Notes under the pieces: generated by a model
The model's database searches: none
Told to the model about the DNA's origin: nothing
Seen by the model: only the letters and a program-made list of their open reading frames with translations
Part shown: positions 11,495 to 26,795 of the stretch, piece by piece
How the letters are laid out: every line of letters starts with the position of its first letter
Numbering within the stretch: position 1 is the first letter of the stretch
Made by a program: the position numbers and the translations under genes
DNA from: an uncultured Candidatus Saccharibacteria bacterium
GTDB lineage: Bacteria > Patescibacteriota > Minisyncoccia > Phycocordibacterales > CAIZLB01
Assembly (NCBI GenBank): GCA_964550955.1
Contig: CAZKAF010000003.1
Location: 7,489 to 71,488 of the forward strand
Direction of reading: 5' to 3'
Length of the DNA: 64,000 bases

Positions 11495-12298
11495 TTATTT
11501 GCTTATTGCCGACGATTCCCAGCACATATTGAAGATGGTCTTCATCATGTTGTGGATTTTCTCATCCTCTATGATCGTGCCGATCGCATTTGATTTGGAG
11601 AAATTTACGATCGAAACTTTGCTCTTTCCGTATACGACAATTTCTCCGGTCATGGGAAACGCGTCTTTGGAGGCAAATCTTATGTCAGGCCAAATGCTCT
11701 TTCTAATGTCCCCATAACGGATGTCGTTGAATTGCCGGCCTTCAGGCGTGTCCGGCGTGATTCCTCTGGTGGTTATCCCGATTCTCTCCTTGCCTTTCAC
11801 ATAGTCGTCAAAGAATGTCTTTGGCAGAAACTCTCTCAATTCCGAAGTATCAGCCCAGGCGAGCATTTCATATGGCTTGCTTGTCGCCAGATGGTCTTCG
11901 TAGATGGTCGTTATCCCTTCCACTCCCTCGTAATAGGTAATTTTTGGCTTATCTCCAAGCAATCCATGAAGCTCGTTGATTTCGGGAATTATAGACTTGG
12001 CCGTATCCAATGATTCTTCCGCCTGCTTTACCTTGTTCTCGGCATATTTGATAAATCGGTCCGGCTTCTCAACCTGATAAAACAGCTTGTTCTTCTTTTC
12101 GATTTCATTTACCAATCCGCGAATAGAAAGGTTAAGGAGGATTTTGTACACAGTGCTTCTATTCAGCCCTGAATACTCGGCTATTTTAGAAGGGTAGGCT
12201 CCTCCGAGCTCCAAAAGAGCTAGGTACACAAGGGCTTCTTTGTCAGAAAAGCCGGTCTTTTCCAATTTTCTGAGGAATAAAGGGTTTTTTATATTCAT
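11495..12298 (-). CDS. TrmB-family HTH transcriptional regulator (paralog 1 of 5)
   Basis: start at ATG 12298 (MNIKNPLF); N-terminal LEKTGFSDKEALVYLALLELGGAYPSKIAEYSGLNRSTVYKIL matches the TrmB winged-HTH domain; divergent from SBP gene. Confidence 0.65.
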   Translation of the reverse strand: MNIKNPLFLRKLEKTGFSDKEALVYLALLELGGAYPSKIAEYSGLNRSTVYKILLNLSIRGLVNEIEKKNKLFYQVEKPDRFIKYAENKVKQAEESLDTAKSIIPEINELHGLLGDKPKITYYEGVEGITTIYEDHLATSKPYEMLAWADTSELREFLPKTFFDDYVKGKERIGITTRGITPDTPEGRQFNDIRYGDIRKSIWPDIRFASKDAFPMTGEIVVYGKSKVSIVNFSKSNAIGTIIEDEKIHNMMKTIFNMCWESSAISK

Positions 12299-12311
12299 GC
12301 TCTTTAACCAG

Positions 12312-12341
12312 ATTATACCGAACGGCAGCATTTTTTGTCAA
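12312..12341 (-). promoter_or_regulatory. consensus sigma70-like promoter for TrmB paralog 1 (TTGACA-N18-TATAAT)
   Basis: minus-strand reading gives TTGACA (plus 12336-12341) then an 18-nt spacer then TATAAT (plus 12312-12317), with the ATG 13 nt downstream. Confidence 0.4.
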
Positions 12342-12398
12342 CATCAACGAACAAAATATGTATTATATCAGATATATGTCTATAAATAAGCGTCTTTC

Positions 12399-12425
12399 GT
12401 GTTTATACTGTCACAGTATAAACAC
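12399..12425. promoter_or_regulatory. 27-bp perfect palindrome GTGTTTATACTGT-C-ACAGTATAAACAC, candidate TrmB operator
   Basis: perfect dyad symmetry in the divergent intergenic region between the TrmB and SBP genes. Confidence 0.4.
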
Positions 12426-12689
12426 AAGTAAGAAAATGTGTGTCATAGTTATTTCAGAATTTAAACAAGTTCTTAAGCAACCAGCAAAAGACAATCAATT
12501 TGCGGATATGGCCGTATTACGGGGCATGGCGATATGTCCGCTTGGTTACTGGAGTCGGTCTAAAAATCTCCCTGTCTCGGAATGCATGTTCCGACTGAAG
12601 AGCTCGAGAGGGCGAAACAGAGAATCTTGCTGACAAGATCAGCCAAGATAAAAGAGTAGAAGCATTATCAATTATTATTAAATTTACAA

Positions 12690-13805
12690 ATGAATAAAAC
12701 AATCAAGGTAGTCATGGGCATTATTGCGGTCATTCTTGTCGCTTGGTGCGTCGCTTCAGTTGCCGCGAAGAAGAATCCTGAGACAAGGCCGACAGTCAGG
12801 ATCGGTGTCACCCTTCCTCTTACGGGGGACGTGGCGATGCTCGGTCAAAATAGTCGACAGGCTCTGCTTCTTGCCCGGGAACAGTTGCCCAAGAACACCA
12901 AATACAATTACGAATTTGTATTCGAAGACGACCAGTTCAGGCCTCAGGCCGGAGCATCTGCTGCCAATAAGCTTATTAGCATAGATAATGTCTCGGCTCT
13001 CTTCTCATTCGGTTCGCCTGTCGGAAACGCGGTAAGCCCGATTGCAGAAAAGGCAAAGGTTCCTCACATCAACTTTTTCGCCTCTGACATGAATGTGGCA
13101 AACGGAGATTACAACTTCGTAAATTACACTCCTCCCTACAAGGATTCGGAGATGTTTATCAAGGAATTGAACAAGCGAGGGGTGAAGACGGTCGCGTTCT
13201 TCGGTCAACAGGATAATCCTGGGGTAGGGGCAATCATAGCTGCCTTTGAGAACGATATCAAGAATACCGATATCAAGGTTCTTTCTAACCAGAAGTTCAA
13301 TACCGGCTCTCGAGATTTTCGAACTCAGATTGCGGCCGTGAAGAATCTCAATCCCGATATCTACGTTCTTGAGGCAACTTCTCCGGAACTGGAAATTCTC
13401 ACCAAGCAGCTTCGTGAGGCGGGAATTCAAACGCCTGTTACCTCGATGGAAGCGTTTGAATTTTCTTCCGAACTCTCATTGTTTGAGGGAATGTGGTATG
13501 TAAATGCTGCGGATCCTCAGCAGTGGTTCGTGAATCTCTTTGCAAAAAGATACCCTAACGACACTCCGAAGTTCGGCGCGGCAAACGGATATGATTCGTT
13601 GAATCTTATTGTCCGGGCCGCAGAAGAAATAGGGGACGGAAAGACCGTTCCTACTCGAGAAGAAATCAGGGATGCCCTCTCCAAAATCAAGGGATTTGAC
13701 GGCGCGCTCGGCAACAACCTAAGCGTCGACGAACATGGAGTCGTGGTATCTGGCGCCGTCGTTCGAGAAATCAGGAATGGAAGTCCCGTGACAATCAGCA
13801 AATAA
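12690..13805 (+). CDS. ABC transporter substrate-binding protein, LivK/Peripla_BP_6 family (SBP paralog 1)
   Basis: signal/TM N-terminus; RIGVTLPLTGDVAMLGQNSRQALLLAREQL...FEDDQFRPQAGASAANKLIS follows the LivK-type architecture. Confidence 0.7.
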   Translation: MNKTIKVVMGIIAVILVAWCVASVAAKKNPETRPTVRIGVTLPLTGDVAMLGQNSRQALLLAREQLPKNTKYNYEFVFEDDQFRPQAGASAANKLISIDNVSALFSFGSPVGNAVSPIAEKAKVPHINFFASDMNVANGDYNFVNYTPPYKDSEMFIKELNKRGVKTVAFFGQQDNPGVGAIIAAFENDIKNTDIKVLSNQKFNTGSRDFRTQIAAVKNLNPDIYVLEATSPELEILTKQLREAGIQTPVTSMEAFEFSSELSLFEGMWYVNAADPQQWFVNLFAKRYPNDTPKFGAANGYDSLNLIVRAAEEIGDGKTVPTREEIRDALSKIKGFDGALGNNLSVDEHGVVVSGAVVREIRNGSPVTISK

Positions 13806-13928
13806 TCTTTATCAGAAGATGAGCTGACAAAACCGCCATACGGCGGTTTTGCGTTGAAATTTAAAGATAAATATCCGGGGCTTACGTGCATCTCCCTGGT
13901 TATTCTCGGCGGTCTTATTGCGGGATAT

Positions 13929-14711
13929 TTATTTCCCATCGCCGTTCTTCTTCCATACCATCTCGAATATCTCCTTCATGGTCTTCGCGACATCCGGGTT
14001 CTCGATCACGACCGCTTGCAAGTCTCCGTTCATGACGATTCTTACGAACGTGTCTCCCGCGTCAATGGAGACGGTCGAAGAGTATTCGGAATAGGGAACA
14101 GTCTGAATGTTGTGGCCGAGAGAAAGGTCCCTCTCGAGAGACTCTTTCGTGGAGGAATGATGCGGAGTGATGCCCCGTATCTTGATTCCATGCTTCAGCA
14201 GCTTGTCTTCCCATGAATCAAGGACTGGCAGCAGGTCGGGCGATATCCTTTCGGCTGTCGCGAAGAATCCCACGATTTCCTTGTTGTGCATGTCGGCGCA
14301 ACCGTAACTGATCGCCTCGTCTATCCCCTTGAGGCCCTCGTAATACAGCACCTTCACTTTCCGTTCGGGGTTGCCGGCGATTGATATGAGCTCGGGAAGA
14401 ACCTGTTTTGACATCTGCACTTTAAGTTCCTGATTTCGGAAGAACTCCTGCGGCGATTTGGCAACGAAATTTCGCTTTTTTGCCTTGGGAATTTTCAAGA
14501 CAAGACCCTTTTTTCTCAATTCATCCAGTATCACGTAGGTGGTAGGCCTCTTGATTCCGGACTTTTCTGCAATTGCATACGCCGAGGCGGTCCCCATTTC
14601 AAGCAAAGTAAGATACACCCGAGCCTCTTTCTCGGAAAGTCCCACGTTTTGAAGAGCCTCAAGGTGTTTGTTCACAGTGGCAACACTACCGAATTTGCAA
14701 AAAATAGTCAA
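13929..14711 (-). CDS. TrmB-family HTH transcriptional regulator (paralog 2)
   Basis: apparent TTG start at 14711; HTH VGLSEKEARVYLTLLEMGTASAYAIAEKSGIKRPTTYVILDELRKKGLV; paralogous to 11495-12298. Confidence 0.6.
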   Translation of the reverse strand: MTIFCKFGSVATVNKHLEALQNVGLSEKEARVYLTLLEMGTASAYAIAEKSGIKRPTTYVILDELRKKGLVLKIPKAKKRNFVAKSPQEFFRNQELKVQMSKQVLPELISIAGNPERKVKVLYYEGLKGIDEAISYGCADMHNKEIVGFFATAERISPDLLPVLDSWEDKLLKHGIKIRGITPHHSSTKESLERDLSLGHNIQTVPYSEYSSTVSIDAGDTFVRIVMNGDLQAVVIENPDVAKTMKEIFEMVWKKNGDGK

Positions 14712-14870
14712 TACTTATGACGACAAAACAGTACAGATATATAATATGGCTATAAATATAAGCACATTATGGGTATATAATATCTGTTCTTTTGACTAAG
14801 ATACTGATACCATGATATCAATGTAGCGTTATTAAAGGCAGGGAATTACACGAAACAATATAAAATAAAT

Positions 14871-15956
14871 ATGAATAAATTTTACAAGATTTCTGGTGCG
14901 GTACTGATTATTGCGCTGGCCACGCTGGCAATAGCGCGAATGCGCCCGGCTTCCGGAGACATTAAGATTGGCGTCATTTCACCCATGACAGGTCTTATTT
15001 CCGGAGGTTCAAACTTGGGGGAAAATTATGCCAACGGAGTCAAGCTGGCCATTGAAGACTATAAGGCGCTTCATCCGGGAATAAATATTTCATATGTTTT
15101 GGAAGATGATGGATATGATTCCAAGAAGGGGGTAAGCGCATATCAGAAGCTGGTGAATCTGGACAAAGTGGACGCCCTTCTCAATCTTTCATCGCCTACG
15201 ATTGATGCCGTGTATGAGACTGCGCGCAAGGACGGCCTTCCTATCATGCAGCTGGGAGAACAAGCCCAGTCTTCCGACGATAATATTTTCCAAGTATATC
15301 CTGGAAACAAGGCGGCAATCGAGGCTTTGGGAGCCGAGCTTCAAAATCGCGGATACCAGAAAATCGTGGTTGCATCCCAGCAGCTTGCCGCATACGAGCG
15401 GTGGGTAAACGACATAAAAACCACGTTCAAGGGGAATGTCGTGCATGAAAGAATTTCCCCGACGGAAAATGACTTGAGGCCGATTGCCCTCAAGGTGGCT
15501 CAAGAGAAGCCTGATGCCTTGGTTATCCTGATGGGATCGTCTGCCGGCGCGGAGCTCGTGAAGAACTTGCATCAGCAGAATAATCTTCCTCCTTTGTATC
15601 TCGATACGGCGCTGAACCTGGGGCTCGGCGATTTCCAAAAAGTTCTCGGCAGCGACCTCGGAGCTCTTGAGGGAACGGTCGCCGTTTCGATCACCAGCTA
15701 CACGTCAGATGATTTCAAGGAGAGATATAAGGCAAAATACGGCATGGACGCCGGAGCCTTGGCCGATTATGGATATGATTCGGCGATGATATTGCTCAGC
15801 AGTCATGATTCGAATCGAGGCAAGTGGATGGAAAATATTTCCAATGCCGACTATCAGGGCGTTTCAGGAAGGGTTTCTTTCGAGCCGGACGGCACTCGAA
15901 TTCCGGAGTATAAGCTGGTTACGGTACGAAGCGGCGCTATAGTCGATCTGAAATAA
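14871..15956 (+). CDS. ABC transporter substrate-binding protein, LivK/Peripla_BP_6 family (SBP paralog 2)
   Basis: IKIGVISPMTGLISGGSNLGENYANGVKLAIEDY...LEDDGYDSKKGVSAYQKLV; close paralog of SBP 5. Confidence 0.7.
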   Translation: MNKFYKISGAVLIIALATLAIARMRPASGDIKIGVISPMTGLISGGSNLGENYANGVKLAIEDYKALHPGINISYVLEDDGYDSKKGVSAYQKLVNLDKVDALLNLSSPTIDAVYETARKDGLPIMQLGEQAQSSDDNIFQVYPGNKAAIEALGAELQNRGYQKIVVASQQLAAYERWVNDIKTTFKGNVVHERISPTENDLRPIALKVAQEKPDALVILMGSSAGAELVKNLHQQNNLPPLYLDTALNLGLGDFQKVLGSDLGALEGTVAVSITSYTSDDFKERYKAKYGMDAGALADYGYDSAMILLSSHDSNRGKWMENISNADYQGVSGRVSFEPDGTRIPEYKLVTVRSGAIVDLK

Positions 15957-15987
15957 GCCATTCGGGCATTGTCCGCAAAAAAAGGGG

Positions 15988-17226
15988 CTAATCGAAAAAG
16001 ATATCATCATCGTCGTCGAAGCTGTCACCTCTCCCTATGGTTTCATGGCGGCTTATCCCTTCGCGATCCTCATCCAGCGAAATCACTCGATGCTTTTTCA
16101 GGCCCCTGGCCGTAAAATCAAGAGTTCTGAATACGTAGCCTAAAAATGTCTTGTTCTTTTTCCAGAGGTAGAGACACCTGTCCACGCGCTCGTTCATTTT
16201 TTCCGGATTTTGGGCGAGAGAAGCTGGGAGGGCCTCGCTATCCAGCCATTTCGTAATCGCGGGCTGCAGAAATTGGGTGAACGTCTCTTTTGCTTCCTGA
16301 TTTCCCTTGCGAATCAGGTCGATAAAATCCATGCAAATCTGATTCACCGCATCCTCTTCATGCTTGCCGGTCGATTCGTAGAAGAGATACAGCGAATCCT
16401 TGTGCTTTTCCAGCAGCTGATCAACTTCCTCCTGGTTGGAATATCCTTCCGCTACGGTGATATCCTCAAGGAATATCTTCCGTTTCCATGATGCCTGGTA
16501 TTCCGGAGGCAAGAGCGAGATAAGCCTGTCCCATTCTATGCCGCCCTTTGCATTTGTTAAATTTCTCTCGGCAAACCTGAAAACATGCCGGGCTTTTTTC
16601 GCCAGAAAAGTAGGCGACCATTCTTTGGGCTTTTCTTTCTCCAGCAATGCTTGCACCTCGGAACTTATGCTTTCCAAGGTATATTTCCGAGCCGCCTCGG
16701 CTTTTTTCTGAATGTTGCTGTCCAGCGCGCCTTCCTGCCATTTGTCTTTCCACTCGCCGATCGAGTCAATCAAATCTGCCCATATGGCGGGCCTAGGGTT
16801 TCCTGTTCCAGCCTGAGAATTCAAATACCTGTAAAGCTTCGCGTCCTGCCTGATTATCCATTTTTTATTGAACTGTGCCGGCTTATCCCGCTCGAGCAAT
16901 TGAACGAGCCGTTCTTTGGCCTTTTCGAAATCCCATTTTTCAAAGCTTTCTTTGGACCAGCGCTCTTGCCAGCTTTCGGGCAGCTGAGCGGTAAATTCGC
17001 CCCAATCCTTTATCAGGCCGGCCCTCATGCTTCTGGTAAAATATGCGTATACGTTGGGAAGCTTTTTATGAATCCACTTCGGACCAAAATTTTGAGGGTT
17101 TTCTTGCTCCAATTCATTGAGAACGAGCTGGCTGGCGGAAGCCAAATCCAAGTAAAGCCGTTTCGGCTTGTCTTCGATTGTTGACGGAGCAGGGGCTGGT
17201 TGGGGGAAACCTTCGGGCGAATGCAT
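15988..17226 (-). CDS. hypothetical protein with three ~60-aa Trp/Lys-rich internal repeats and an acidic C-terminal tail
   Basis: repeats around KWIHKKLPNVYAYF / KKWIIRQDAKLYRYL / PTFLAKKARHVFRFAERNL (possibly helicase-associated-domain-like); sits in the slot a TrmB regulator occupies in the other cassettes. Confidence 0.35.
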   Translation of the reverse strand: MHSPEGFPQPAPAPSTIEDKPKRLYLDLASASQLVLNELEQENPQNFGPKWIHKKLPNVYAYFTRSMRAGLIKDWGEFTAQLPESWQERWSKESFEKWDFEKAKERLVQLLERDKPAQFNKKWIIRQDAKLYRYLNSQAGTGNPRPAIWADLIDSIGEWKDKWQEGALDSNIQKKAEAARKYTLESISSEVQALLEKEKPKEWSPTFLAKKARHVFRFAERNLTNAKGGIEWDRLISLLPPEYQASWKRKIFLEDITVAEGYSNQEEVDQLLEKHKDSLYLFYESTGKHEEDAVNQICMDFIDLIRKGNQEAKETFTQFLQPAITKWLDSEALPASLAQNPEKMNERVDRCLYLWKKNKTFLGYVFRTLDFTARGLKKHRVISLDEDREGISRHETIGRGDSFDDDDDIFFD

Positions 17227-17302: not shown

Positions 17303-18193
17303 TTGCTTTTTTATGATAAAATTACATTCGTGAACATTCTGCCCCAGCTTATAATAAACAGCGTAATTGCCGGGTCGATCTATTCCCTGGTGGCTCTCGG
17401 TTTCAATCTCATTTATGGAACTACCAAATTCTTCAATCTCGCTCACGGCGCCTTGGCGGCCATCGGCGGGTATGCAGTTTTCTATCTTTCGAAGTCTTTA
17501 GGCTTTCCCTTGATGCCGAGCATTGCCGCGGGAATGCTCGTCGCCGGCCTTGCCGGATACCTGATTGACAGGAGCGTCTTTCGCGCGCTGAGAAAAAGAA
17601 AAGCTTCAGGCATGGTTTTTCTGGTGGCGTCGCTTGGAATCATGACAGCGCTTCAGGCCATTATCGCCATCCTGTTTACCAGTCAGTTTCAGACGCTTTC
17701 GTTCAGCGGCGACTTCAGGGCATATCAGATATTTGGCGGGGTCATTACTCAGGTTCAGCTGGCTATCCTCTTTTCCGTCGCGGTCATCGCTCTTGCCTTG
17801 TCCCTCGCATTCAAATATACGCGTTTTGGCAAAGTGGTGCGCGCGGTAAGCGACGATGAGGAGGTGTCAAAAATCGTGGGAATAAACACTGACAAGGTCA
17901 TCGGAAGGGTATTTTTCGCTGGATCCGCGCTCGCCGGCCTTGCCGGAATCCTAGTCGGTCTTGATACGGGCATCGAGCCGACCATGGGAACGGCGCTCCT
18001 GTTCAAGGGGGTAATAGCTTCCATTATCGGAGGGATAGGGAACGTATACGGGGGAGTGCTCGGCGCGTTCCTTCTCGGATTCGTCGAGAACTTCGGCATC
18101 TGGAAGATTTCGGGCGAATGGAAGGATGCCATCGCGTTCGGCGTGCTGCTGATTTTCCTCCTGGTCCGCCCTCAGGGAATATTTAAGAAATAG
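17303..18193 (+). CDS. livH: branched-chain amino acid-type ABC transporter permease (LivH-like)
   Basis: 296 aa polytopic; N-terminus ...LIINSVIAGSIYSLVALGFNLIYGTTKFFNLAHGAL typical of LivH. Confidence 0.7.
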   Translation: MLFYDKITFVNILPQLIINSVIAGSIYSLVALGFNLIYGTTKFFNLAHGALAAIGGYAVFYLSKSLGFPLMPSIAAGMLVAGLAGYLIDRSVFRALRKRKASGMVFLVASLGIMTALQAIIAILFTSQFQTLSFSGDFRAYQIFGGVITQVQLAILFSVAVIALALSLAFKYTRFGKVVRAVSDDEEVSKIVGINTDKVIGRVFFAGSALAGLAGILVGLDTGIEPTMGTALLFKGVIASIIGGIGNVYGGVLGAFLLGFVENFGIWKISGEWKDAIAFGVLLIFLLVRPQGIFKK

Positions 18194-19105: not shown

Positions 19106-20179
19106 TTGCAAATGAAAAAACTAATAATTATCAGCGTTGCGGCGCTAGTCGTCGCGTCAGTCGTCGCATTTCGGTTTAAAGATGCGCAGCCCTCGGTTGT
19201 AAAAATCGGAATCGTTGCGCCCCTGACTGGCGGAGCGAGCGTGTTCGGCAACTCGCTGGTCAAAGGAGTAGAGATGGCGTTAAGGGACTTGGAGGGTTCA
19301 AAATACAATTATGAGCTGGTGATCGAAGATGATGCTACCAATATCGCGCAATCAGCCAGCGCGGCAAACAAGCTCGCGTCAATTGACAAGGTTTCCGTAA
19401 TCATCTCGGTTACCGCCGGTACCGGCTCTGCCGTGGCGCCGATTGCGGATGCGAACAAGATAGTGCACGTCTGCGTCGCTTGCGCTGACAAGAAGATTGC
19501 CTTCGGGGATTACAGCTATATAAGCAGCGTGTTGCCGGAAGATGAGGCAAAACGATGGTTCGAGGAGGCGATGCTTGCCAGCCCCCAGACAATCGGCCTG
19601 CTTACGATGAATCATCCGGGCGTAAATGCGATTACGGATGAAGTAAAAAGGCAGGCGAAAGAAAAAGGGGTCAGGATCGTTTTTGAAGAGCGATTTGACG
19701 GGACTAACCGCGATTTTAAGACAATCGTCTTGAAGGCAAAGGAAGCGAATGCTGATATCTACTATCTCCAAACGCTTCCTCCGGCGCTCGATATCATCGG
19801 CAAGGACATCAACGACCTTGGTCTTAGGAATGTTGCCGGAGGGGCGGGCACCTTTACCATCGGCGCCAACCTGCGATTGTTCGAAGGAAACTGGTATACA
19901 GAGGCGATGGTGACAGACGGGGAGTTCCAGAATCGGTTTGCTAGCTTGCATCCTGAAACCAGATTCAACATTCGTACCGCGCCTTTCGGATATGACATAT
20001 TCAACATCGTAGTCCTGGGCATTGAAAGCGACGGGGGGTTGGTTTCATATCTGAAGAATCTCGGGGGTTACTCGGGGATTGTCGGCAATCTTTCAAAAGA
20101 CGCCGATCATAACTATATAAAAGCTATTCCGGGCATCTGGAAGATTGAGAACGGGCAAGCGTTACCGATTAAAAAATAG
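19106..20179 (+). CDS. ABC transporter substrate-binding protein, LivK/Peripla_BP_6 family (SBP paralog 3)
   Basis: VKIGIVAPLTGGASVFGNSLVKGVEMALRDL...KYNYELVIEDDATNIAQSASAANKLASIDKVS; close paralog of SBP 1. Confidence 0.7.
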   Translation: MQMKKLIIISVAALVVASVVAFRFKDAQPSVVKIGIVAPLTGGASVFGNSLVKGVEMALRDLEGSKYNYELVIEDDATNIAQSASAANKLASIDKVSVIISVTAGTGSAVAPIADANKIVHVCVACADKKIAFGDYSYISSVLPEDEAKRWFEEAMLASPQTIGLLTMNHPGVNAITDEVKRQAKEKGVRIVFEERFDGTNRDFKTIVLKAKEANADIYYLQTLPPALDIIGKDINDLGLRNVAGGAGTFTIGANLRLFEGNWYTEAMVTDGEFQNRFASLHPETRFNIRTAPFGYDIFNIVVLGIESDGGLVSYLKNLGGYSGIVGNLSKDADHNYIKAIPGIWKIENGQALPIKK

Positions 20180-20187: not shown

Positions 20188-21063
20188 ATGGAGCGAATGG
20201 AATACTTCATTCACCTCGCGATTCTGGTTTCGATTTATGCGATGCTCGGCCTGTCGCTCAACCTGATTGTCGGATATGCGGGGCTCCTGTCCATGACGCC
20301 GGCCGCGTTCTATGGAATCGGGGCGTATGCGACAGCCATTCTCATGACTTCGCACGGAATGAACTTCTTCCTTTCCGTCCTTGTCGGAATGGTCGTCTCC
20401 GCCGCGATTGCCCTCTTGGTCGGCTTCGTCCTGTCAAAATTTGACGGAGATTATTTTGCTCTCGGATCGTTCGGATTCAATATCATCATTTTCAGCATCT
20501 TTCTTAATTGGCAGGAGCTTACGCGGGGCCCTCTCGGCATTCCTGGAATTGGCCGACCGACCGCGTTTGGATTTGAATTTTCAGAGAATCTCTCGTTCCT
20601 TGTCCTGAGCGTCCTTTTTGCAGCTGCGGCATACTGGGCGGCGCAGTTCATCGGGAATTCCTCGTTCGGCCGCGTGCTCAAGGCGATTCGCGAAGACGAA
20701 AGAGCCATTCAGGTGTTCGGGTACAACACTCACTATTATAAGCTCGCCATTTTTGTCATCGGCGCGATGATGGGCGCGGTCGCAGGTTCTCTTTTTGCTT
20801 CGTACATCACGTTCATTGACCCGTCTTCATTCGGCTTGACCGAATCCATCTTCATTCTCGCCATCATCATCTTGGGAGGCCTGGCAAACAACAAAGGAGC
20901 AATTCTCGGAGCGGCGTTTCTCATTCTTCTTCCCGAAGCGCTGCGCTTTGTCGGCTTTCCGTCCGACGTTGCCGCCCAGCTGCGTCAAGTCGTCTACGGC
21001 CTCATTCTCGTGGGCCTGATGCTGTACAGGCCTCAAGGGCTGGTCGGGGAATATAAGCTATAA
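20188..21063 (+). CDS. livM: branched-chain amino acid-type ABC transporter permease (LivM-like)
   Basis: 291 aa polytopic; LNLIVGYAGLLSMTPAAFYGIGAYATAIL typical of LivM. Confidence 0.65.
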   Translation: MERMEYFIHLAILVSIYAMLGLSLNLIVGYAGLLSMTPAAFYGIGAYATAILMTSHGMNFFLSVLVGMVVSAAIALLVGFVLSKFDGDYFALGSFGFNIIIFSIFLNWQELTRGPLGIPGIGRPTAFGFEFSENLSFLVLSVLFAAAAYWAAQFIGNSSFGRVLKAIREDERAIQVFGYNTHYYKLAIFVIGAMMGAVAGSLFASYITFIDPSSFGLTESIFILAIIILGGLANNKGAILGAAFLILLPEALRFVGFPSDVAAQLRQVVYGLILVGLMLYRPQGLVGEYKL

Positions 21064-21065
21064 TC

Positions 21066-21800
21066 ATGAAATCTTTAGAAATCAAAAAACTGCATAAGCA
21101 TTTTGACGGAATAAAAGCCGTGAACGGGCTGTCCGTTTCTTTTGAGGCGGGGAAAATCACGGGACTTATCGGTCCTAACGGGTCCGGCAAGTCGACGCTC
21201 ATCAATCTTCTTACGGGGGTCAATTCTTTTGATTCGGGCATCGTGGTCGTCGCGGAGACAACTTCGCTTTCAAAGATGCTTTCTCATGAGATAAGGGATT
21301 TCGGCATGACGCGGACGTTTCAGGATGTGAGGCTCTTCGAGCAAATGCCCGTGCTCGACAACGTCCTTCTTGCGCTCACTGAACGCGGCCCGACTGCGGC
21401 ATTGCTTGAGAGGCACAAGGCGTATCACCTGAAGCAGGCCGAGGAGGTCTTGGAACAGGTCGGTCTGTGGGAAAAGAGGAATGAGCTGGCCGTCAACCTG
21501 TCGTACGGGCAGCGCAAGCTTCTTGAGGTGGCGCGGGCATCGGCGATGAATGCCGGAATATATTTCTTCGACGAGCCGTTTGCGGGATTGTTTCCTGAGA
21601 TGATCAAGACGGTCGCCTCCATCTTGCGCGGGCTGCGAGATGCCGGAAAGACGGTCATACTGGTTGAGCACAACATGGAGCTTATCAGGGAGCTTTCTGA
21701 CTATTGCATCGTCATGGACGCGGGCAAGCTTTTGGCGGAAGGGAATCCGACAGAAGTCCTGTCGCGAAAAGAGGTAATTGAGGCATACTTGGGCGAATAG
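21066..21800 (+). CDS. livG: ABC transporter ATP-binding protein (LivG-like)
   Basis: Walker A GPNGSGKST, signature LSYGQRKLLEV, Walker B IYFFDEPFAGL. Confidence 0.75.
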   Translation: MKSLEIKKLHKHFDGIKAVNGLSVSFEAGKITGLIGPNGSGKSTLINLLTGVNSFDSGIVVVAETTSLSKMLSHEIRDFGMTRTFQDVRLFEQMPVLDNVLLALTERGPTAALLERHKAYHLKQAEEVLEQVGLWEKRNELAVNLSYGQRKLLEVARASAMNAGIYFFDEPFAGLFPEMIKTVASILRGLRDAGKTVILVEHNMELIRELSDYCIVMDAGKLLAEGNPTEVLSRKEVIEAYLGE

Positions 21801-21815
21801 CCGTCAATTGTCGAA

Positions 21816-22643
21816 TCAGGCTACTTTCTTTTTCCATTCTCTCATGTATTCGTTGAAGTCAATTTTCTTGCCATAGCCTTTGGCCAAAACATACAGCTCC
21901 TTCAGGAAATCAATCATGTCTTGGTTTTCGATCTTGATGCCGACTTCATTTTCCCAGTTCATGAGAAATGCATGAGATGAAGTGATGAATAATTCGGCAT
22001 TGTTGTTGAGATATTCATTGCTCACTTTCGTCACGTCCGCCCTTCTGTCCAGGAAGCTCTCGATGATCTTTTTCTGAACGCCTGGCTGTCCGGCATATGT
22101 CCGCATGTAAGAAGGGAAGCCGTCTTCTTTCATGATGGCATCCATGATCACCTTGTTTTTCTTGATAGCGTCGTTGATGGGCACGAATTCGCCCGGCTTG
22201 AATAGCTTGAGCGTATGCATAAGCGATCTTGTGGGCTGGATCACGTATATCCTCCGATTTTTTTCATATGCAAGACTTTCCCACACTTGAAGCATGGCTT
22301 TTTTGCCGTATATCAAGGTGAAGCCGGAACTCTTGCCCGTTTTGCTTATGCTGGAAACTCGGATATTGCCCTCAAGGCTGAGGGCCGCCGCGCTTTCGGC
22401 GAACAGGTCTGAGATCTTGTCGGCAGGCACGGACGATATCAGCACCGATTTGCCTTGAGGAAATTTGGCAATAAGTCCTCGGCCCTGAAGGGAAGAAATC
22501 GCGGTGTAGAGAGTCGTGCGAGGGAAACGCGTCCGCTCGGAAAGCAGGGATATGTTCGAAGGGCCGCTTTCCAGGGCCTGGAGAATCTTATATTCCTGAG
22601 GAGTAAGGTTAAGGAGAGATACTGCTTTGGGGCTAAGGGGCAT
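21816..22643 (-). CDS. TrmB-family HTH transcriptional regulator (paralog 4)
   Basis: HTH LTPQEYKILQALESGPSNISLLSERTRFPRTTLYTAISSLQGRGLIAK. Confidence 0.55.
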   Translation of the reverse strand: MPLSPKAVSLLNLTPQEYKILQALESGPSNISLLSERTRFPRTTLYTAISSLQGRGLIAKFPQGKSVLISSVPADKISDLFAESAAALSLEGNIRVSSISKTGKSSGFTLIYGKKAMLQVWESLAYEKNRRIYVIQPTRSLMHTLKLFKPGEFVPINDAIKKNKVIMDAIMKEDGFPSYMRTYAGQPGVQKKIIESFLDRRADVTKVSNEYLNNNAELFITSSHAFLMNWENEVGIKIENQDMIDFLKELYVLAKGYGKKIDFNEYMREWKKKVA

Positions 22644-22799: not shown

Positions 22800-23888
22800 A
22801 TGAAAAACATCGCCGTCCTTGTCGCGCTTGCCGCCGCCATTGTTTTCGGGACGGCATTGTTCAAGGACGAAGGCGGCGATGCTGCACGCAGCGAAATTAT
22901 TAGAGTCGGCGTTATCATTCCGTTGTCTGGCCAATATGCCGCCCTGGGGGAGAGCAATCGCAATGCCATCCTCATGGCAAAAGAAGAACTCAAAGCCCAT
23001 AATATCGAGGTTTTCTTTGAGGATGACAAATACGATGCAAAGACGGCGGTTTCCGCATATCAAAAGCTGAAGAATATTGACGGCATCGATGCCGTCATAA
23101 TGACCAGCGCTCCGTCTATCCAGTCAGTCGCCCCTCTGACGAATCAGGGCAATATTCCTCTTTTGGGCCTCGGCGGCACTGTCGTTTATGAAAAAGATTC
23201 CGTTTTCCAATTGATGCCCTCGAGCAATCTGCTGTTTCCTGCGCTCGGAAAGATTTCCGGGGATATGTATAAAAAGATAGCCGTAGTTCACAGCAACGCT
23301 CCGTTGTTCCTCGAGAATGCCAAAGCTTTCATGAAAGGCGTTCCGTCCGGTACCGATGCCCGGTACGTGACTGTCAATCCGGCAAGCGATTACCGAACCG
23401 AAGTCCAAAAGATTATTGCCTCAGGTCCTGATGCTGTGACCACCCTTTTGCCGAAGGAGGACGCCATAAAATTCTTGAGGGCGCTCCGGGTGCAGGATGC
23501 CCAGGGAAAGATCAAGGTTATCTGTGATTTTGGCACTGAAATTTATCCCGATGAATATGCCGCCGCGATAGGGAAGGAAAGGCTGGAAGGATGCATTTCT
23601 ACGAACTTGGCAGATACGGCCGCCTCCGATTTCATGGAAAGATATAAGGGGAAATACGGAAGCGACCTGCAGATTACCGGAGATTTCGCGTATGACGCTC
23701 TCGGCATCATTAAAAAGTTGAGCGAAAATTATCCGAAAGATGCATGGGTTGAAAAGCTTCAGTCTCCGGATTTCGAATACCGGGGAGGCGTCTCGGGCGA
23801 TATCAGATTTAACGATGACGGAACCCGTCTTGATTTGCCGCCGAAAGTAAACGTGTTCAAGGAAGGCAAGTTTGTCCCTATGAAATAA
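22800..23888 (+). CDS. ABC transporter substrate-binding protein, LivK/Peripla_BP_6 family (SBP paralog 4)
   Basis: start chosen at MKNIAVLVALAAA (22800); IRVGVIIPLSGQYAALGESNRNAILMAKEEL...FEDDKYDAKTAVSAYQKL. Confidence 0.65.
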   Translation: MKNIAVLVALAAAIVFGTALFKDEGGDAARSEIIRVGVIIPLSGQYAALGESNRNAILMAKEELKAHNIEVFFEDDKYDAKTAVSAYQKLKNIDGIDAVIMTSAPSIQSVAPLTNQGNIPLLGLGGTVVYEKDSVFQLMPSSNLLFPALGKISGDMYKKIAVVHSNAPLFLENAKAFMKGVPSGTDARYVTVNPASDYRTEVQKIIASGPDAVTTLLPKEDAIKFLRALRVQDAQGKIKVICDFGTEIYPDEYAAAIGKERLEGCISTNLADTAASDFMERYKGKYGSDLQITGDFAYDALGIIKKLSENYPKDAWVEKLQSPDFEYRGGVSGDIRFNDDGTRLDLPPKVNVFKEGKFVPMK

Positions 23889-23889
23889 G

Positions 23890-24735
23890 CTATTCGCTGT
23901 CAAAATCGATAAGCTTTCTTGCGATTTTCTCATTCTGATCGTACTTGCCGAGCAAGTATTTGGTCGAGTTGAACATCTCCTTCACGAGTTCGAACACGTC
24001 TTTGTTCTCGATGATTACTGCAAATTCCTCGTGCCAGTTGACGATCGCCACCTTGTCTTCATAGAGATAGATTTCCGCCTTCGTCTTATTTAAGAAATTG
24101 TTCGGCAGCTTGGCCGTGTCTGCCGAACGGTTGGCGAAGCTTCTAAGCAGCTCAAGTCCTTCGTTCTCGGGCAGGGCGGCAAACATCGAATCGGTGCCTC
24201 TTTCATGAACGATTCCCTCGACTATCATTCTCTTTGCGTTTATTCTCTGATTGAAGCTGATAATTTTTTCAATCGGATTTCTTGTTACTGCCGCGATGAT
24301 GGACTGTTCTGGCTGGATGCCGAAGAAGCGGCTTTTTGGAGGCATGCTCAGGATTTCGTCGAAGACGGTCAGGACCTTTTCGTTGCCTTGGTAAAGGCCG
24401 ATTCGCGCGGCATCTGAGATTGCCCGGACCTCGCTGCTCCCTCCGCCGTTTTCGGCATCTGACGCGCCCTTAAACCTCTTCAGAGCTTCCTCGTACGCAT
24501 TGCATATGTCTTCGTCGCTCGCTTTTCTCCATAGGATTTTCCTGCTTCTCCTCACTTTTTCCAGAAACCCGCGCTCCTGCAATCTTGGCAGCATGTAGTA
24601 TAGGGAAGTGCGGGGTATTTGCGTGGAGAGTGCCAAATCGGACACGGCTTGCTCTTTGAAAGAGAGCGCTTTCAGGATGGTCACGTCATTCGCGCACAAT
24701 CCCAGAAGGACGGAAGATTTCTTGTCTATGTGCAT
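23890..24735 (-). CDS. TrmB-family HTH transcriptional regulator (paralog 5)
   Basis: HTH LGLCANDVTILKALSFKEQAVSDLALSTQIPRTSLYYMLPRLQERGFLEK. Confidence 0.55.
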   Translation of the reverse strand: MHIDKKSSVLLGLCANDVTILKALSFKEQAVSDLALSTQIPRTSLYYMLPRLQERGFLEKVRRSRKILWRKASDEDICNAYEEALKRFKGASDAENGGGSSEVRAISDAARIGLYQGNEKVLTVFDEILSMPPKSRFFGIQPEQSIIAAVTRNPIEKIISFNQRINAKRMIVEGIVHERGTDSMFAALPENEGLELLRSFANRSADTAKLPNNFLNKTKAEIYLYEDKVAIVNWHEEFAVIIENKDVFELVKEMFNSTKYLLGKYDQNEKIARKLIDFDSE

Positions 24736-24935
24736 GCTGAAATATTAGTCTTTGTCGAAAATTTAGTCAATCTAAATCCAGGAAATCCTTATCTATAAAG
24801 GGTATACAGGTATTTGTTAAAAATAATAAACTTTTTTACAAGCTCGTAATTGTGTTTTATAGTGATGCTGCTTAGGATTTATCAATAAGCCATCCTGCAG
24901 CCCGCCAGACGGCATTTAACGCAATAAAATACTTT

Positions 24936-26027
24936 ATGAAGAAAAATACAAAAATAATTTGGTCAGCGCTTGTCCTGCTGGCAGTCGTTGTCGCGCTTGG
25001 CATCGGATTTGCCAACAGTTCCAAGCAGCCGGAATCCCTTTCACTCGGCTTGATGCTTCCGTTGTCGGGCGATTATGCGGTAGCGGGCGAGAATTATCGG
25101 AAAGGAGTCGAGCTCGCGTTGGATCAGTACAAAAAAGAGCATCCTGACGCGGTCATAAGGCTGGTCGTGGAAGACGACGGCTTTGATGCCAAAAAGGGCG
25201 TGAGCGCCTACAGGAAGCTTGTTGATTTCGACAAGGTTGACGCGATCATGATGCTTTCCACGCCCGTAATAGACGCAATCCATCAGGATGCGGTCAAGAC
25301 CGGCATTCCCGTCATGCAGCTCGGAATTCAAACGGTCGGAATCGCCAAAGACAACATATTTCAGATTAGCCCTTCGGGAGAGGCTCCCATAGCTGAATTT
25401 GCCGATTATCTCACGAAAAATTATTCTTTCTCGAAAATGGCGGTCATGTACGACAACACGGCCGGCGGATTGAGTTTCTTCAAGGCGTTTCAGGATGGTT
25501 ATAAAGGAAACTTTACTCCGCTCATCGTCAATGCGAACGGAGACCTGAAGGGGTACGCCGCGAAAATCGCCGGCGAAGATTACGATGCCGTCATATTTCT
25601 CACTTCGCCGACAAATGGCGCGCTTGCGGTAAGGGAGATTCTCACGGTTGATCAGACCCCTCCGTTTTTCGGGTTCGATGCCCAGCTTCAGACGGGATTT
25701 GCGGATTACGAGAGGATTCTCGGCGATGCCAATAAATTGAACGGCGCCAGGTCGCTATGGCTGAAATCCGGCAATGCTGATCAGTTCAAGGTCGCATTCA
25801 ACGCGAAATTCGGCGAAGATCCGGGCTTCATTGCGGACTTCGGATATGACATCTTCAACGTGCTCGTAAAAAATCATGACAGCGACAATGCGAAATGGGT
25901 AAGCAATATTCAGAAAGTGAAGGAGGGCGGCGTTTCAGGACCTATCTCGTTTGATGAGAACGGGGTCAGGATTCAGCCTATCGTCGTGAACAAGATTGAG
26001 AACGGGCAAATAATGCAGATTGAATAG
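24936..26027 (+). CDS. ABC transporter substrate-binding protein, LivK/Peripla_BP_6 family (SBP paralog 5)
   Basis: LSLGLMLPLSGDYAVAGENYRKGVELALDQY...VEDDGFDAKKGVSAYRKLVDFDKVDAIMMLSTP. Confidence 0.7.
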   Translation: MKKNTKIIWSALVLLAVVVALGIGFANSSKQPESLSLGLMLPLSGDYAVAGENYRKGVELALDQYKKEHPDAVIRLVVEDDGFDAKKGVSAYRKLVDFDKVDAIMMLSTPVIDAIHQDAVKTGIPVMQLGIQTVGIAKDNIFQISPSGEAPIAEFADYLTKNYSFSKMAVMYDNTAGGLSFFKAFQDGYKGNFTPLIVNANGDLKGYAAKIAGEDYDAVIFLTSPTNGALAVREILTVDQTPPFFGFDAQLQTGFADYERILGDANKLNGARSLWLKSGNADQFKVAFNAKFGEDPGFIADFGYDIFNVLVKNHDSDNAKWVSNIQKVKEGGVSGPISFDENGVRIQPIVVNKIENGQIMQIE

Positions 26028-26072
26028 ACGGAACGAATAGATAATTACCGGGATACAAGATAGAATGGAATC

Positions 26073-26795
26073 ATGCAAAAAGAAATGCTTCTGGAACTGA
26101 AAGACGTCAGGGTGCATTACGGAGGGGTCAGGGCCTTGGATGGCGCGGCTATCAGGATTGATGGGGGCGAAATCGTGGCGCTCATGGGTCCGAACGGCGC
26201 GGGAAAATCAACAGTCCTGAAAGCCATATTTGGCCTGGCTCGCATGGAATCGGGCAGCGTAATCTGGGAAGGTCGCGAAATCAAGCTTAAGCCATACGAG
26301 GTGGTGGAGCTTGGAATATCGCTTGTTCCTCAAGGCAAGCGCGTGTTCAAGCATCTCTCGGTCTATGAAAATATTGAAATCGGCGGGCATGCGATCAAGA
26401 ATAAGGCGGTTCTGAAAGAGCGAATCAGCGAAGCCCTTGATATTTTCCCCGCGCTGAAGGAAAAATTAAATCAGAAGGCGGGACAGCTTTCAGGAGGACA
26501 GCAGCAAATGGTCGCCATTGCCCGCGGCCTGGTTACTGATCCGAAGCTTTTGCTTCTGGATGAGCCGTCCCTCGGCCTTGCTCCGAAGGTGGTAAAGGAG
26601 GTCTTTGCGAAGATAAAGGAGGCCAATGAAAAAAGAAACACGGCGATTATCATCGTGGAGCATAATCTCAAGTCGCTTTTGGAAATTACCGATAGGGCAT
26701 ACGTGCTTGATAAGGGGAAAGTTGTCGCGGAAGGAAAAGGCGGGGATTTTCTTCAGAGCGACATCCTGGAAAAGGTGTTCATGGGAAAACAATGA
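26073..26795 (+). CDS. livF: ABC transporter ATP-binding protein (LivF-like)
   Basis: Walker A GPNGAGKST, signature LSGGQQQMVAIARGL, Walker B LLLLDEPSLGL; 240 aa. Confidence 0.75.
   Translation: MQKEMLLELKDVRVHYGGVRALDGAAIRIDGGEIVALMGPNGAGKSTVLKAIFGLARMESGSVIWEGREIKLKPYEVVELGISLVPQGKRVFKHLSVYENIEIGGHAIKNKAVLKERISEALDIFPALKEKLNQKAGQLSGGQQQMVAIARGLVTDPKLLLLDEPSLGLAPKVVKEVFAKIKEANEKRNTAIIIVEHNLKSLLEITDRAYVLDKGKVVAEGKGGDFLQSDILEKVFMGKQ

Follow-up and report, generated by a model that had tools for sequence, protein, structure and literature searches.

A LivHMGF-type ABC importer locus with five regulator-paired binding protein genes in a Patescibacteria bacterium

Can one ABC importer be served by five substrate-binding proteins (SBPs), each under a regulator of its own? 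The question is raised by a locus in a 64,000-nt stretch of DNA (the window) from contig CAZKAF010000003.1 (GCA_964550955.1) of an uncultured Candidatus Saccharibacteria, a member of the Patescibacteria. Between positions 11495 and 26795 of the window, five Peripla_BP_6 (LivJ/K-type) SBP genes each lie divergent from a gene for a regulator of 248-281 aa, and the spacers between them, which form shared divergent control regions, measure 140-390 bp (Table 1). Judged from its sequence, the locus encodes an ABC importer of the HAAT family (LivHMGF type); its host belongs to the Patescibacteria (CPR). All 14 genes that an initial annotation had placed here were confirmed at or near the same positions, and the gene order is identical in two independent assemblies (SRR16797981 and SRR16797977), so the locus is not an assembly artefact.

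Table 1. Genes and control elements of the locus, with positions in the window
Feature	Position	Strand	Description
R1	11495..12298	-	Short TrmB-family (TrmBL2-like) regulator, 267 aa; PF01978 59 bits; ORF reaches 12331
R1 promoter	12312..12341	-	TTGACA-18-TATAAT, sigma-70; 12/12 consensus positions
Inverted repeat TTGT-N12-ACAA	12335..12354		Overlaps R1 -35 box; candidate R1 operator
CTATAAATAAG box	12380..12390	+	Probable -10 element of S1 promoter; conserved column block in orthologous-spacer alignment
Palindrome, 31 nt	12397..12427		Near-perfect, 15-nt arms, 14 matches; just downstream of S1 -10 box
Hammerhead type III ribozyme-like element	12569..12623	+	S1 leader; Rfam RF00008
S1	12690..13805	+	Peripla_BP_6 SBP, subfamily S1/S3; 158 bits; N-terminal hydrophobic anchor or signal
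Hairpin AAAACCGCC-ATAC-GGCGGTTTT	13829..13850		GC-rich, A and T runs on flanks; read from sequence
R2	13929..14711	-	Short TrmB-family regulator, ORF 260 aa; PF01978 62.5 bits
S2	14871..15956	+	Peripla_BP_6 SBP, subfamily S2/S4/S5; 135.7 bits
X412	15988..17226	-	412-aa protein, divergent from LivH; inside array, not a recurring component
LivH	17303..18193	+	LivH-type permease, BPD_transp_2 150.6 bits; own upstream spacer
R3	18183..18971	-	Short TrmB-family regulator, 262 aa; PF01978 25.2 bits, just below cut-off
S3	19106..20179	+	Peripla_BP_6 SBP, subfamily S1/S3; 103 bits; heads probable S3-LivM-LivG operon
LivM	20188..21063	+	LivM-type permease, BPD_transp_2 165 bits
LivG	21066..21800	+	LivG-type ATPase, ABC_tran + BCA_ABC_TP_C
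R4	21816..22643	-	Short TrmB-family regulator, R4/R5 subgroup, 275 aa; PF01978 26.1 bits, just over cut-off
S4	22800..23888	+	Peripla_BP_6 SBP, 362 aa; 124 bits; ORF opens at 22755
R5	23890..24735	-	Short TrmB-family regulator, 281 aa; PF01978 23.2 bits (below cut-off); HTH_IclR 25.2 bits
S5	24936..26027	+	Peripla_BP_6 SBP; 111 bits; heads probable S5-LivF operon
LivF	26073..26795	+	LivF-type ATPase, ABC_tran 119 bits

Binding proteins and translocator genes

All five SBPs match Peripla_BP_6 at 103-158 bits (Pfam cut-off 31.7 bits), in agreement with their annotation as LivK-type proteins. S1 and S3 share 32% identity, S2 and S5 share 37%, and S4 is about 30% identical to S2 and S5, with 24-26% identity between the S1/S3 and S2/S4/S5 groups, which bears out the two subfamilies (1/3 versus 2/4/5) proposed initially. 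The five cassettes are old, diverged paralogs with 22-37% identity rather than recent duplicates, as had also been suggested. The closest PDB relatives of S1 and S5 are 3td9 (E 4e-24) and 4gnr (E 5e-13), respectively. In the public gene calls, S1 (363 aa), S3 (355 aa), LivH (287 aa) and R2 (248 aa, to 14675) have internal starts, and S4 (362 aa) begins at 22800. Ligands could not be assigned to the SBPs, as NCBIfam scores fell far under their cut-offs and the pocket comparison was weak. An N-terminal hydrophobic helix, read from the protein sequences, would tether the SBPs to the membrane, and the five may deliver different, chemically related solutes, perhaps amino-acid-like or other small organic acids or amides, to one shared translocator.

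LivH, LivM, LivG and LivF occur once each in the locus. HMMs built from the locus proteins detected no extra SBP, regulator, permease or ATPase ORFs in the window, and no further copies of the locus genes lie within about 3 kb past its left edge or 10 kb past its right edge. The single copy of each translocator gene is thus confirmed for the window and its flanks, and these flanks contain no permease and ATPase sets belonging to the individual SBPs. A Walker A motif (GPNGSGKST), Walker B and the H-loop are readable in LivG, as are Walker A (GPNGAGKST), LSGGQ and Walker B in LivF. The 3' ends of LivH and R3 overlap by 11 nt. X412 has no Pfam or PHROGs match. A search of 5.8 billion proteins yielded only two homologs of it, both encoded less than about 2 kb away from a TrmB-like gene.

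LivM, LivG and LivF are co-oriented with SBP genes at short distances (LivM 8 nt after S3, LivG 2 nt after LivM and LivF 45 nt after S5), so that co-transcription with cassette 3 or 5 is probable for three of the four translocator genes. Cassettes 3 and 5 would then be core units that supply the translocator, and cassettes 1, 2 and 4 may be add-on capture modules. This arrangement limits the independence of the modules: of the initial proposal of one importer with five separately regulated modules, the one translocator stands and the clean separation does not. We infer separate regulation and distinct ligands for the five modules.

A short TrmBL2-like form of regulator

Two of the five regulators, R3 and R5, score below the PF01978 (TrmB wHTH) cut-off of 25.6 bits. 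This gap is closed by PF01978 matches in most R5 orthologs, by alignment of the R1-family and R4/R5-family profiles (R4 included) over 230 columns (hhalign probability 98.7%, E 4.7e-16), and by AF2 models of R1 (pLDDT 88.7) and R5 (pLDDT 91.5), which match TrmBL2 along their full length as the top fold match (E 1e-14 and 4e-9). The regulators fall into two subgroups, R1/R2/R3 and R4/R5; R3 matches R1 and R2 at 53-60 bits across its full length in BLASTP, and R4 and R5 share 27% identity (100 bits). The regulators are TrmB-family proteins, as first annotated, of the short TrmBL2-like form: a wHTH, a coiled-coil helix and a PLD-like domain. R1 has 456 homologs in Patescibacteria, mostly of 267 aa, and its start is most likely at 12298, because the longer ORF contains a perfect TTGACA-18-TATAAT promoter and the orthologs are 267 aa long.

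The initial annotation had drawn an analogy with archaeal TrmB, a sugar sensor encoded beside a MalE-type SBP. In the Thermococcus/Pyrococcus trehalose/maltose system, too, a PF01978 wHTH regulator gene adjoins an ABC-importer SBP gene, which the archaeal regulator controls, and the recognition-helix Tyr is conserved. The systems differ in that the SBPs here are LivK-type and not MalE-type, and that the host is a bacterium with sigma-70 promoters and five cassettes per locus. Of the seven sugar contacts of true TrmB, six are made by a C-terminal subdomain (PMC4158304). Pfam found no match to this subdomain (PF11495) in R1-R5, which at 248-281 aa are short, and in the R1 and R5 models nothing follows the PLD-like domain; the analogy therefore fails and is uninformative about the signal. 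A sugar-responsive system with sugar-sensing regulators, for which the name of the family and its PF01978 DNA-binding domain speak, is nevertheless extremely improbable, the more so as the transporter is of the HAAT type and not a sugar type.

The Tyr equivalent to TrmB Y50, whose role has been described (PMC4158304), is kept in all five regulators (that of R2 was aligned to 3qph), and the position after it carries a different residue in every regulator (K, V, L, T, Y), as would suit paralogs of different DNA specificity. The invariant polar residues of the PLD-like C-domain are particular to each paralog family. This domain probably senses a small molecule to which the regulators respond. To our knowledge ligand sensing by a PLD-like domain has no precedent, since TrmBL2, the closest structural relative, has no sensor domain.

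TrmBL2 (PDB 5bpd, Pyrococcus/Thermococcus) resembles the regulators in length (264 aa) and in its three-part architecture, although sequence identity is only 13-20%. It is a chromatin protein and global repressor that lacks an effector domain (PMC4158304), and binds DNA broadly without a particular target gene. The regulators here could likewise be general DNA-binding or chromatin proteins, or ligand-free autoregulators, with their position beside SBP genes a legacy of tandem duplication and no individual signal control. The family-specific polar residues and the varying residue beside the recognition-helix Tyr argue against this. Unlike TrmBL2, the regulators here are specific to their loci, occur as several paralogs and are co-inherited with SBP genes.

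Control regions of the cassettes

Each regulator dimer would bind a site in its own spacer, autoregulate, and set the expression of the adjacent SBP gene. In cassette 1, the R1 promoter block is conserved across 10 orthologous spacers, and the TTGT-N12-ACAA repeat has a fixed position in eight of the ten. The exact pattern occurs seven times, versus 0.07 expected from shuffles, and has only two matches across the whole window. The 31-nt palindrome, a quality reached by none of 300 shuffles, is not conserved in orthologs and is specific to the source organism; it could serve as an operator or, alternatively, form a hairpin in the 5' leader. For cassettes 2-5, the inverted repeats seen in the spacers were no better than chance, and no operator shared by the five spacers was found. 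A candidate operator is thus available for at most one cassette, and the lack of significant operators in four of five spacers favours general DNA binding. Between S1 and R2, the hairpin is a probable bidirectional terminator, although it was not among the hits of a consensus terminator scan.

The S1 leader also contains the hammerhead-like element, which matches the full RF00008 model with every core nucleotide present, at 37.8 bits (gathering score 48.5) and E 1.5e-4 for the whole window. It lies within an organism-specific insertion of about 200 nt that is missing from nine orthologous spacers, and a related copy in locus L097 carries a compensatory change in stem II.

Recurrence of the cassettes in Patescibacteria

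In a survey of 77 species-representative loci, 30 of 38 SBP genes (79%) were paired with a divergent regulator gene, and the spacer measured 166 bp in the median. The head-to-head pairing is therefore systematic and recurs in other species, and the layout, far from being confined to the source organism, is a widespread Patescibacteria feature. The neighbourhoods include an isolated cassette (L088), around which transporter genes are absent for 10 kb. R1 and S1 have their nearest relatives in the same foreign cassettes, where S1 orthologs (64-66% identity) always adjoin R1 orthologs; the nearest relatives of R2 and S2 likewise share cassettes (L025 and L023), and R5 orthologs are paired with SBPs in L086-L088. 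The counterpart of cassette 1 in L003 has a different syntenic position than in the source genome. Within arrays, regulator and SBP distances are only weakly correlated (r = 0.19), a point against the reading favoured below. By these comparisons of sequence and gene order, the regulator-SBP cassette is a conserved Patescibacteria unit that has been duplicated, inherited and relocated together.

The regulator family is far larger than its SBP-linked subset, with 16,209 representatives. Of the regulator genes in the surveyed loci, only 23% are paired with an SBP gene and 77% do not lie beside one, which speaks for general DNA binding. Even so, the widespread pairing, the isolated cassettes and the joint inheritance and relocation make a functional coupling of regulator and SBP hard to avoid, and we consider a general DNA-binding or ligand-free role unlikely.

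Arrays in which 4-7 SBPs are accompanied by no more than one translocator set recur: at most two permease and two ATPase genes are in view in L004, L012, L018, L025 and L029, and L086 combines six SBPs with a single pair of permeases and a single pair of ATPases. It is quite unlikely that some of the five SBPs use translocators elsewhere, or act as surface receptors or scavengers, instead of feeding the local LivHMGF. The inspected portion of the genome was about 77 kb, the L088 cassette is far from translocator genes, and in L004 six SBP genes occur in 20 kb that lack a Liv permease; however, arrays with a translocator in view have no more than one permease pair and one ATPase pair, Pfam found no additional signalling domains in the SBPs, and translocator sharing is established behaviour of the family, LivJ and LivK with LivHMGF being the precedent (PMC12708883). 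The array most likely arose by cassette insertion and duplication into an ancestral regulator <-> SBP-perm-perm-ATPase-ATPase operon; this simple form persists in L048.

The E. coli LIV-I/LS system (HAAT, TC 3.A.1.4) also combines Peripla_BP_6 SBPs with two BPD_transp_2 permeases and two ATPases, one with the BCA C-terminal motif, and its SBPs of different specificity use one translocator, as those here may do. It has two SBPs, free in the periplasm, whereas the five SBPs here are only 24-37% identical to one another and probably membrane-anchored, the translocator genes lie scattered between the SBP genes, and every SBP is accompanied by a divergent local regulator of its own, from a different family; the E. 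coli liv genes are under the global regulator Lrp. In the Opp system of Borrelia burgdorferi, several OppA SBPs with separate gene promoters serve one OppBCDF translocator. There too, a small-genome, nutrient-dependent bacterium has multiplied SBPs and not whole transporters, although the transporter is of the peptide/Opp family and no SBP has a dedicated regulator gene.

We therefore favour, as the probable reading, one LivHMGF translocator with five diverged SBPs, each with its own local TrmBL2-like regulator, in which cassettes 3 and 5 form the core and 1, 2 and 4 are add-ons. As the initial annotation had supposed, we found no published description of this modular regulator-SBP layout in the literature. 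The locus is a real, recurrent and apparently undescribed variant of the known design in which several binding proteins share one ABC translocator.

Composition and divergence of the locus

ORF listing and Pfam scans bore out the gene content of the locus, which runs R1(-) <-> S1(+); R2(-) <-> S2(+); X412(-) <-> LivH(+); R3(-) <-> S3(+)-LivM(+)-LivG(+); R4(-) <-> S4(+); R5(-) <-> S5(+)-LivF(+), where R1-R5 are the regulators, S1-S5 the LivJ/K-type substrate-binding proteins (SBPs) and each divergent pair a cassette numbered accordingly. All five SBPs are Peripla_BP_6 proteins (103-158 bits in Pfam), the permeases LivH and LivM carry BPD_transp_2, and the ATPases carry ABC_tran and BCA_ABC_TP_C (LivG) or ABC_tran (LivF). 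The HAAT-family part set is complete (a Peripla_BP_6 SBP, two BPD_transp_2 proteins and two ABC ATPases, one with BCA_ABC_TP_C), and Walker A, signature and Walker B are intact in the LivG and LivF sequences. Each SBP has an N-terminal hydrophobic helix and none has a canonical lipobox, which would fit signal-anchored binding proteins of a cell that has no outer membrane.

A search of the 64 kb window with HMMs built from the locus proteins revealed no further ORF for an SBP, regulator, permease or ATPase, nor were any present in the contig for ~3 kb and ~10 kb past the window edges. The ratio of SBPs to translocators is 5:1 within the window and its ~13 kb of flanks, and related loci hold 4-7 SBPs per translocator set, with at most one such set. 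An assembly artefact is ruled out because gene order is identical in two independent assemblies, and recent duplication by paralog identities of 22-37%. We regard the architecture of the locus as solid.

Pairwise SBP identities (S1/S3 32%, S2/S5 37%, S4 ~30% to S2 and S5, cross-group 24-26%) agree with the division into groups 1/3 and 2/4/5 that the initial annotation had drawn. Among the regulators, R1 and R2 are 31% identical, R4 and R5 27%, and R3 is 22-24% identical to R1 and R2. BLAST connects the two regulator groups weakly (~30 bits). Profile-profile comparison of the R1-family alignment (A1) with the R4/R5-family alignment (A3) gave a probability of 98.7% (E 4.7e-16), the 230 aligned columns spanning both domains; PF01978 is found in most R5 orthologs, and AlphaFold models of R1 (pLDDT 88.7) and R5 (pLDDT 91.5) have a three-part architecture in common. 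The paralogs are old. Homologs of R1 and R5 come almost exclusively from Patescibacteria/CPR metagenome-assembled genomes, named as Candidatus Taylorbacteria, Pacebacteria, Nomurabacteria and 'Patescibacteria group' among others, and the rest of the window, with PilM, a bacterial L19 and many family-less genes, is consistent with that affiliation.

X412, the protein encoded between S2 and LivH, matches no family in Pfam or PHROGs. Two homologs were found among 5.8 billion proteins, both within ~2 kb of a TrmB-like gene (L089, L090). It was rejected as a sixth component of the system, being a near-orphan that does not recur in arrays. The locus lies between two tRNA genes, and the repeated 3' end of tRNA-Arg(TCT) could be an integration scar of the att-like duplication type. 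A genomic island between the tRNA genes was considered and rejected; there is no integrase, and GC content is just slightly below that of the surroundings.

Features of the window and of compared sequences
Sequence	Feature	Position	Strand	Remarks
Window	Cassette locus	11495-26795		
Window	tRNA-Arg(TCT)	11152-11224		left edge of locus
Window	last 18 nt of tRNA-Arg(TCT)	11207-11224		
Window	repeat of these 18 nt	11388-11405		164 nt downstream, then CCA
Window	R1 start (ATG)	12298	-	
Window	palindrome	12397-12427		31 nt, near-perfect, TCGTGTTTATACTGT-C-ACAGTATAAACACAA; just 3' of predicted S1 -10 box
Window	insertion, ~200 nt	~12440-12660		around hammerhead-like element
Window	hammerhead type III-like element	12569-12623	+	S1 5' leader; Rfam RF00008, 37.8 bits
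Window	GC hairpin with flanking A and T runs	13829-13850		between S1 and R2
Window	X412	15988-17226	-	412 aa; three internal ~90-aa repeats (by eye), acidic tail
Window	tRNA-Val	26969-27043	-	right edge of locus
Window	ribosomal protein L20 leader, weak match	37917-38033	-	RF00558, 32 bits against gathering 58.7, E 0.022
Window	segment shared with L003	61963-64000		compared together with L101
L003	segment shared with window	8706-11935		
L035	four TrmBL2-like genes	9182-12382		head-to-tail tandem, another metagenome-assembled genome
L066	nine TrmBL2-like genes	2253-14990		regulator-only array, 13 kb, tandem; Kerfeldbacteria contig
L086/L087	six-SBP Liv array, interrupted	11591-16944		Candidatus Taylorbacteria, MHRO01000004
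L093	two identical hammerhead-like copies	56-89, 1089-1122		
L097	hammerhead-like copy	2641-2695		metagenome contig

The cassette in related genomes

An R1-family profile retrieved 79 loci from species-representative genomes, whose ORFs were scanned with the locus HMMs; 77 had matches. In these 77 loci, 30 of the 38 SBP genes (79%) were divergently paired with a regulator, at a median spacer of 166 bp, as against 30 of 132 regulator genes (23%) paired with an SBP. The SBPs are thus nearly always accompanied by a regulator, while the regulator family has other uses too. The arrangements range from a simple operon, regulator <-> SBP-permease-permease-ATPase-ATPase (L048), and two cassettes followed by the operon (L069), to arrays in which 4-7 SBPs share the locus with no more than one permease pair and one ATPase pair, dispersed among the cassettes as in the window (L012, L018, L025, L029, L004). 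Six SBPs occur in L086/L087, and in L088 a cassette stands by itself, without a transporter gene within 10 kb.

Several observations indicate that the pair is inherited as one conserved unit. The nearest relatives of R1 and S1 share foreign cassettes (L003, L009), as do those of R2 and S2 (L025, L023), and R5 orthologs adjoin SBPs in three more loci (L086, L087, L088). In L003, which is syntenic with the right part of the window, an R1-type cassette lies between the genes for a class-II aminoacyl-tRNA synthetase and an M16 peptidase. These two genes are adjacent in the genome studied here, so the cassette relocates as a unit. Regulator and SBP distances were correlated overall (Mantel r = 0.60, reached by 0 of 2000 permutations), a value that orthologous groups and species phylogeny inflate; within arrays regulators and SBPs were weakly correlated (r = 0.19), and a co-phylogeny at that level was set aside.

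Two further observations concern these relatives. The order common to L003 and the window is IleRS, RecO, CLIPPER-like, aminoacyl-tRNA synthetase, M16 peptidase and AI-2E, then CysRS, TatD, S6, SSB, S18 and EF-P; L003 has a surplus of ~7.5 kb between the synthetase and the peptidase, holding two methyltransferases and an SBP <-> R1-ortholog-SBP cassette, whereas cassette 1 of the studied genome lies within the array. The array of L086/L087 is broken by genes for an AbiEii toxin, DUF6922 and PRiA4_ORF3, and also by RhuM and bAvd/23S_rRNA_IVP-like genes, which points to insertion of defence or mobile genes between cassettes.

Regulators and their control regions

What defines the TrmB family is its PF01978 DNA-binding domain, whose recognition helix carries Tyr50 (PMC4158304). 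In TrmB itself sugar is sensed by an effector-binding domain, and of the seven contacts with the sugar six come from its C-terminal beta-barrel subdomain; this part is missing from TrmBL2, which has 264 aa and works as a chromatin protein and global repressor (PMC4158304). With the PF01978 cutoff at 25.6 bits, R1 (59.1), R2 (62.5) and R4 (26.1) score above it and R3 (25.2) and R5 (23.2) slightly under it, and, taken with the R5 orthologs and the profile-profile comparison above, the N-terminal winged helix places all five in the family. The recognition-helix tyrosine (R-S/P/T-T/S-x-Y) is kept in R1-R5, aligns to Y50 of 3qph, and is invariant in the family alignments (Y51 in A1, Y46 in A3); the following residue, equivalent to D51, varies among the five (K, V, L, T, Y). 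An identity as sugar-sensing TrmB sensu stricto (TrmB, TrmBL1) was rejected, since Pfam gave no PF11495 match at E <= 0.01 in any of the five, the proteins are too short (248-281 aa against 338-341 aa, the models stopping at the PLD-like domain), and the NCBIfam TrmB/TrmBL1 equivalog scores, which cover the N-terminus alone, are ~30 bits against cutoffs of 600-650.

The top full-length Foldseek matches were TrmBL2 structures (5bpd, 5bqt, 5bpi; ~270 columns), with E values of 1e-14 (R1 model) and 4e-9 (R5 model), and the C-terminal domain of the R1 model also matched the PLD-fold proteins PLD3, vaccinia F13 and FAM83. The TrmBL2-type plan is present, with ~260 aa made up of a winged helix, a long helix of coiled-coil type and one PLD-like alpha/beta domain. 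A tyrosine that is kept, followed by a residue that differs in each protein, points the same way, and we read R1-R5, from sequence and predicted structure, as TrmB-family members of a short TrmBL2-like form. That they coat DNA abundantly and with low specificity is a further possibility, which locus-specificity and co-inheritance with the SBPs speak against, only indirectly.

An exhaustive profile search found 16,209 representatives of the regulator family at 50% identity with E <= 1e-3, of which 1,473 had E <= 1e-30, nearly all of 240-275 aa. Arrays of regulators in tandem were also seen on two contigs (L066, L035), and three predicted proteins of 787-1061 aa (P0263, P0272, P0287) hold 5-7 copies of the regulator profile, as fusions or mis-called tandem genes.

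The regulatory logic described here is inferred. The R1 promoter is perfect (TTGACA-18-TATAAT) and ends 13 nt ahead of the ATG, and this position, together with 267-aa orthologs, fixes the R1 start. When ten orthologous R1-S1 spacers were aligned, a conserved block, TTGTCAA-N7-ACnnACAAAATAT, was found that comprises the R1 -35 box and an upstream box; the two make up an inverted repeat, TTGT-N12-ACAA, which eight of ten spacers hold at the same position and which occurs in exact form seven times where 0.07 are expected. Among candidate operators this repeat ranks first, and R1 would autoregulate through it. Its centre, calculated from coordinates, precedes the predicted S1 transcription start by ~50 nt, so it could either raise or lower S1 expression. 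The second conserved feature is a -10-like box, CTATAAATAAG, facing the SBP gene.

The repeat is not reused at cassettes 2-5. A shared operator was rejected, since the sole string common to the five spacers, GTCAA(C/T)A, is the -35 hexamer of each regulator promoter read on the opposite strand; none would be expected, because the regulators are 20-30% identical and have different residues beside the recognition tyrosine. The best inverted repeats of cassettes 2-5 were no better than chance in shuffles and were dropped as operator candidates, and a TrmB-like TACT-N-AGTA operator was not enriched. Rfam found no riboswitch in the long R1-S1 spacer. Alone among the spacer inverted repeats, the near-perfect palindrome of that spacer beat the shuffles (0 of 300 equal); it is not conserved in orthologous spacers, and could be either an operator or a leader hairpin.

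The hairpin between S1 and R2 looks like a bidirectional terminator. Gaps are 8 nt between S3 and LivM, 2 nt between LivM and LivG and 45 nt between S5 and LivF, and LivH stands alone, with a 76-103 nt spacer in common with X412. As LivM and LivG follow closely behind S3, and LivF behind S5, three of the four translocator genes probably depend on the cassette 3 and 5 promoters. The initial picture of five independent modules and a separately expressed importer has to be qualified to that extent. L029, L018 and L086 have comparable SBP-permease-ATPase and SBP-ATPase units.

Separately, the hammerhead-like element of the S1 leader stays below the RF00008 gathering threshold (48.5; whole-window E 1.5e-4) and has GUC, CUGAAGAG, CGAAAC and all three stems; the MFE fold does not give the hammerhead fold. 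The insertion around it is found in this organism only, being absent from the nine orthologous spacers. The copy on L097 is 84% identical over 50 nt and keeps stem II via compensatory changes. Three metagenome contigs of ~1.1-1.3 kb (L093, L095, L098) each carry two identical hammerhead-like copies ~1,005-1,035 nt apart, L093 with a further copy on the opposite strand; they look like tandem or circular hammerhead-bearing elements of ~1 kb and are unrelated to the window except in the ribozyme core.

Ligands and place among known systems

The SBPs are distant from any characterised protein. The best PDB relatives are 3td9 for S1 (E 4e-24) and 4gnr for S5 (E 5e-13), and the others include both amino-acid and aromatic-acid binders. 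As to branched-chain amino-acid specificity, the NCBIfam LivJ/K subfamily models score the SBPs at 25-54 bits, where the cutoff is 477. In alignment with E. coli LivJ, at 20-25% identity, S1 keeps equivalents of S79, A101, T102 (as Ser) and E226, the residues that hold the amino-acid backbone, and S2, S3 and S5 are without them. This pattern, weak at such divergence, hints that the ligand classes of the SBPs may differ; assignment of ligands from LivJ pocket residues was set aside as suggestive only.

The sharing of one translocator by several SBPs is classical, as in LivJ/LivK with LivHMGF (PMC12708883), and a TrmB-family regulator beside the SBP gene of an ABC importer is known from archaeal sugar systems (PMC4158304). 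The design principle of several SBPs, one translocator and a local regulator is therefore already known, and the locus extends known biology; it is no new category. It differs from TrmBL2 and archaeal TrmB in that the sensor-less TrmBL2-like form appears here as a dedicated, SBP-linked local regulator with multiple paralogs, from the archaeal sugar systems in that the partner is a HAAT-type SBP and the host a bacterium, and from known systems in that the cassettes form arrays recurring across the phylum. Among the papers covered by full-text literature searches, none joins TrmB with Patescibacteria or CPR, and none describes TrmB-LivK cassettes.

Patescibacteria cannot make most building blocks and must import them, and their gene regulation is almost unstudied. 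The locus and its relatives tie a large archaeal-type regulator family (~16,000 representatives at 50% identity) to a concrete target, the individual SBP genes of an ABC importer, and suggest a cheap way to diversify uptake in a streamlined genome, in which a single membrane machine is served by many capture proteins, each under its own control. A bolder reading, which we offer tentatively and consider rather unlikely, is that the regulator-SBP pair is a portable 'sense-and-capture' module in which the PLD-like domain has become a sensor for small molecules, tuned to whatever the adjacent SBP binds; episymbionts with minimal genomes would then gain access to more nutrients by equipping one translocator with further cassettes, not by acquiring further transporters. 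If this were true, the hundreds of co-inherited pairs would constitute a natural library in which transcription factors and binding proteins are matched in ligand specificity, and what looks like a very large, possibly dominant, family of CPR transcription factors would have its first assigned function.
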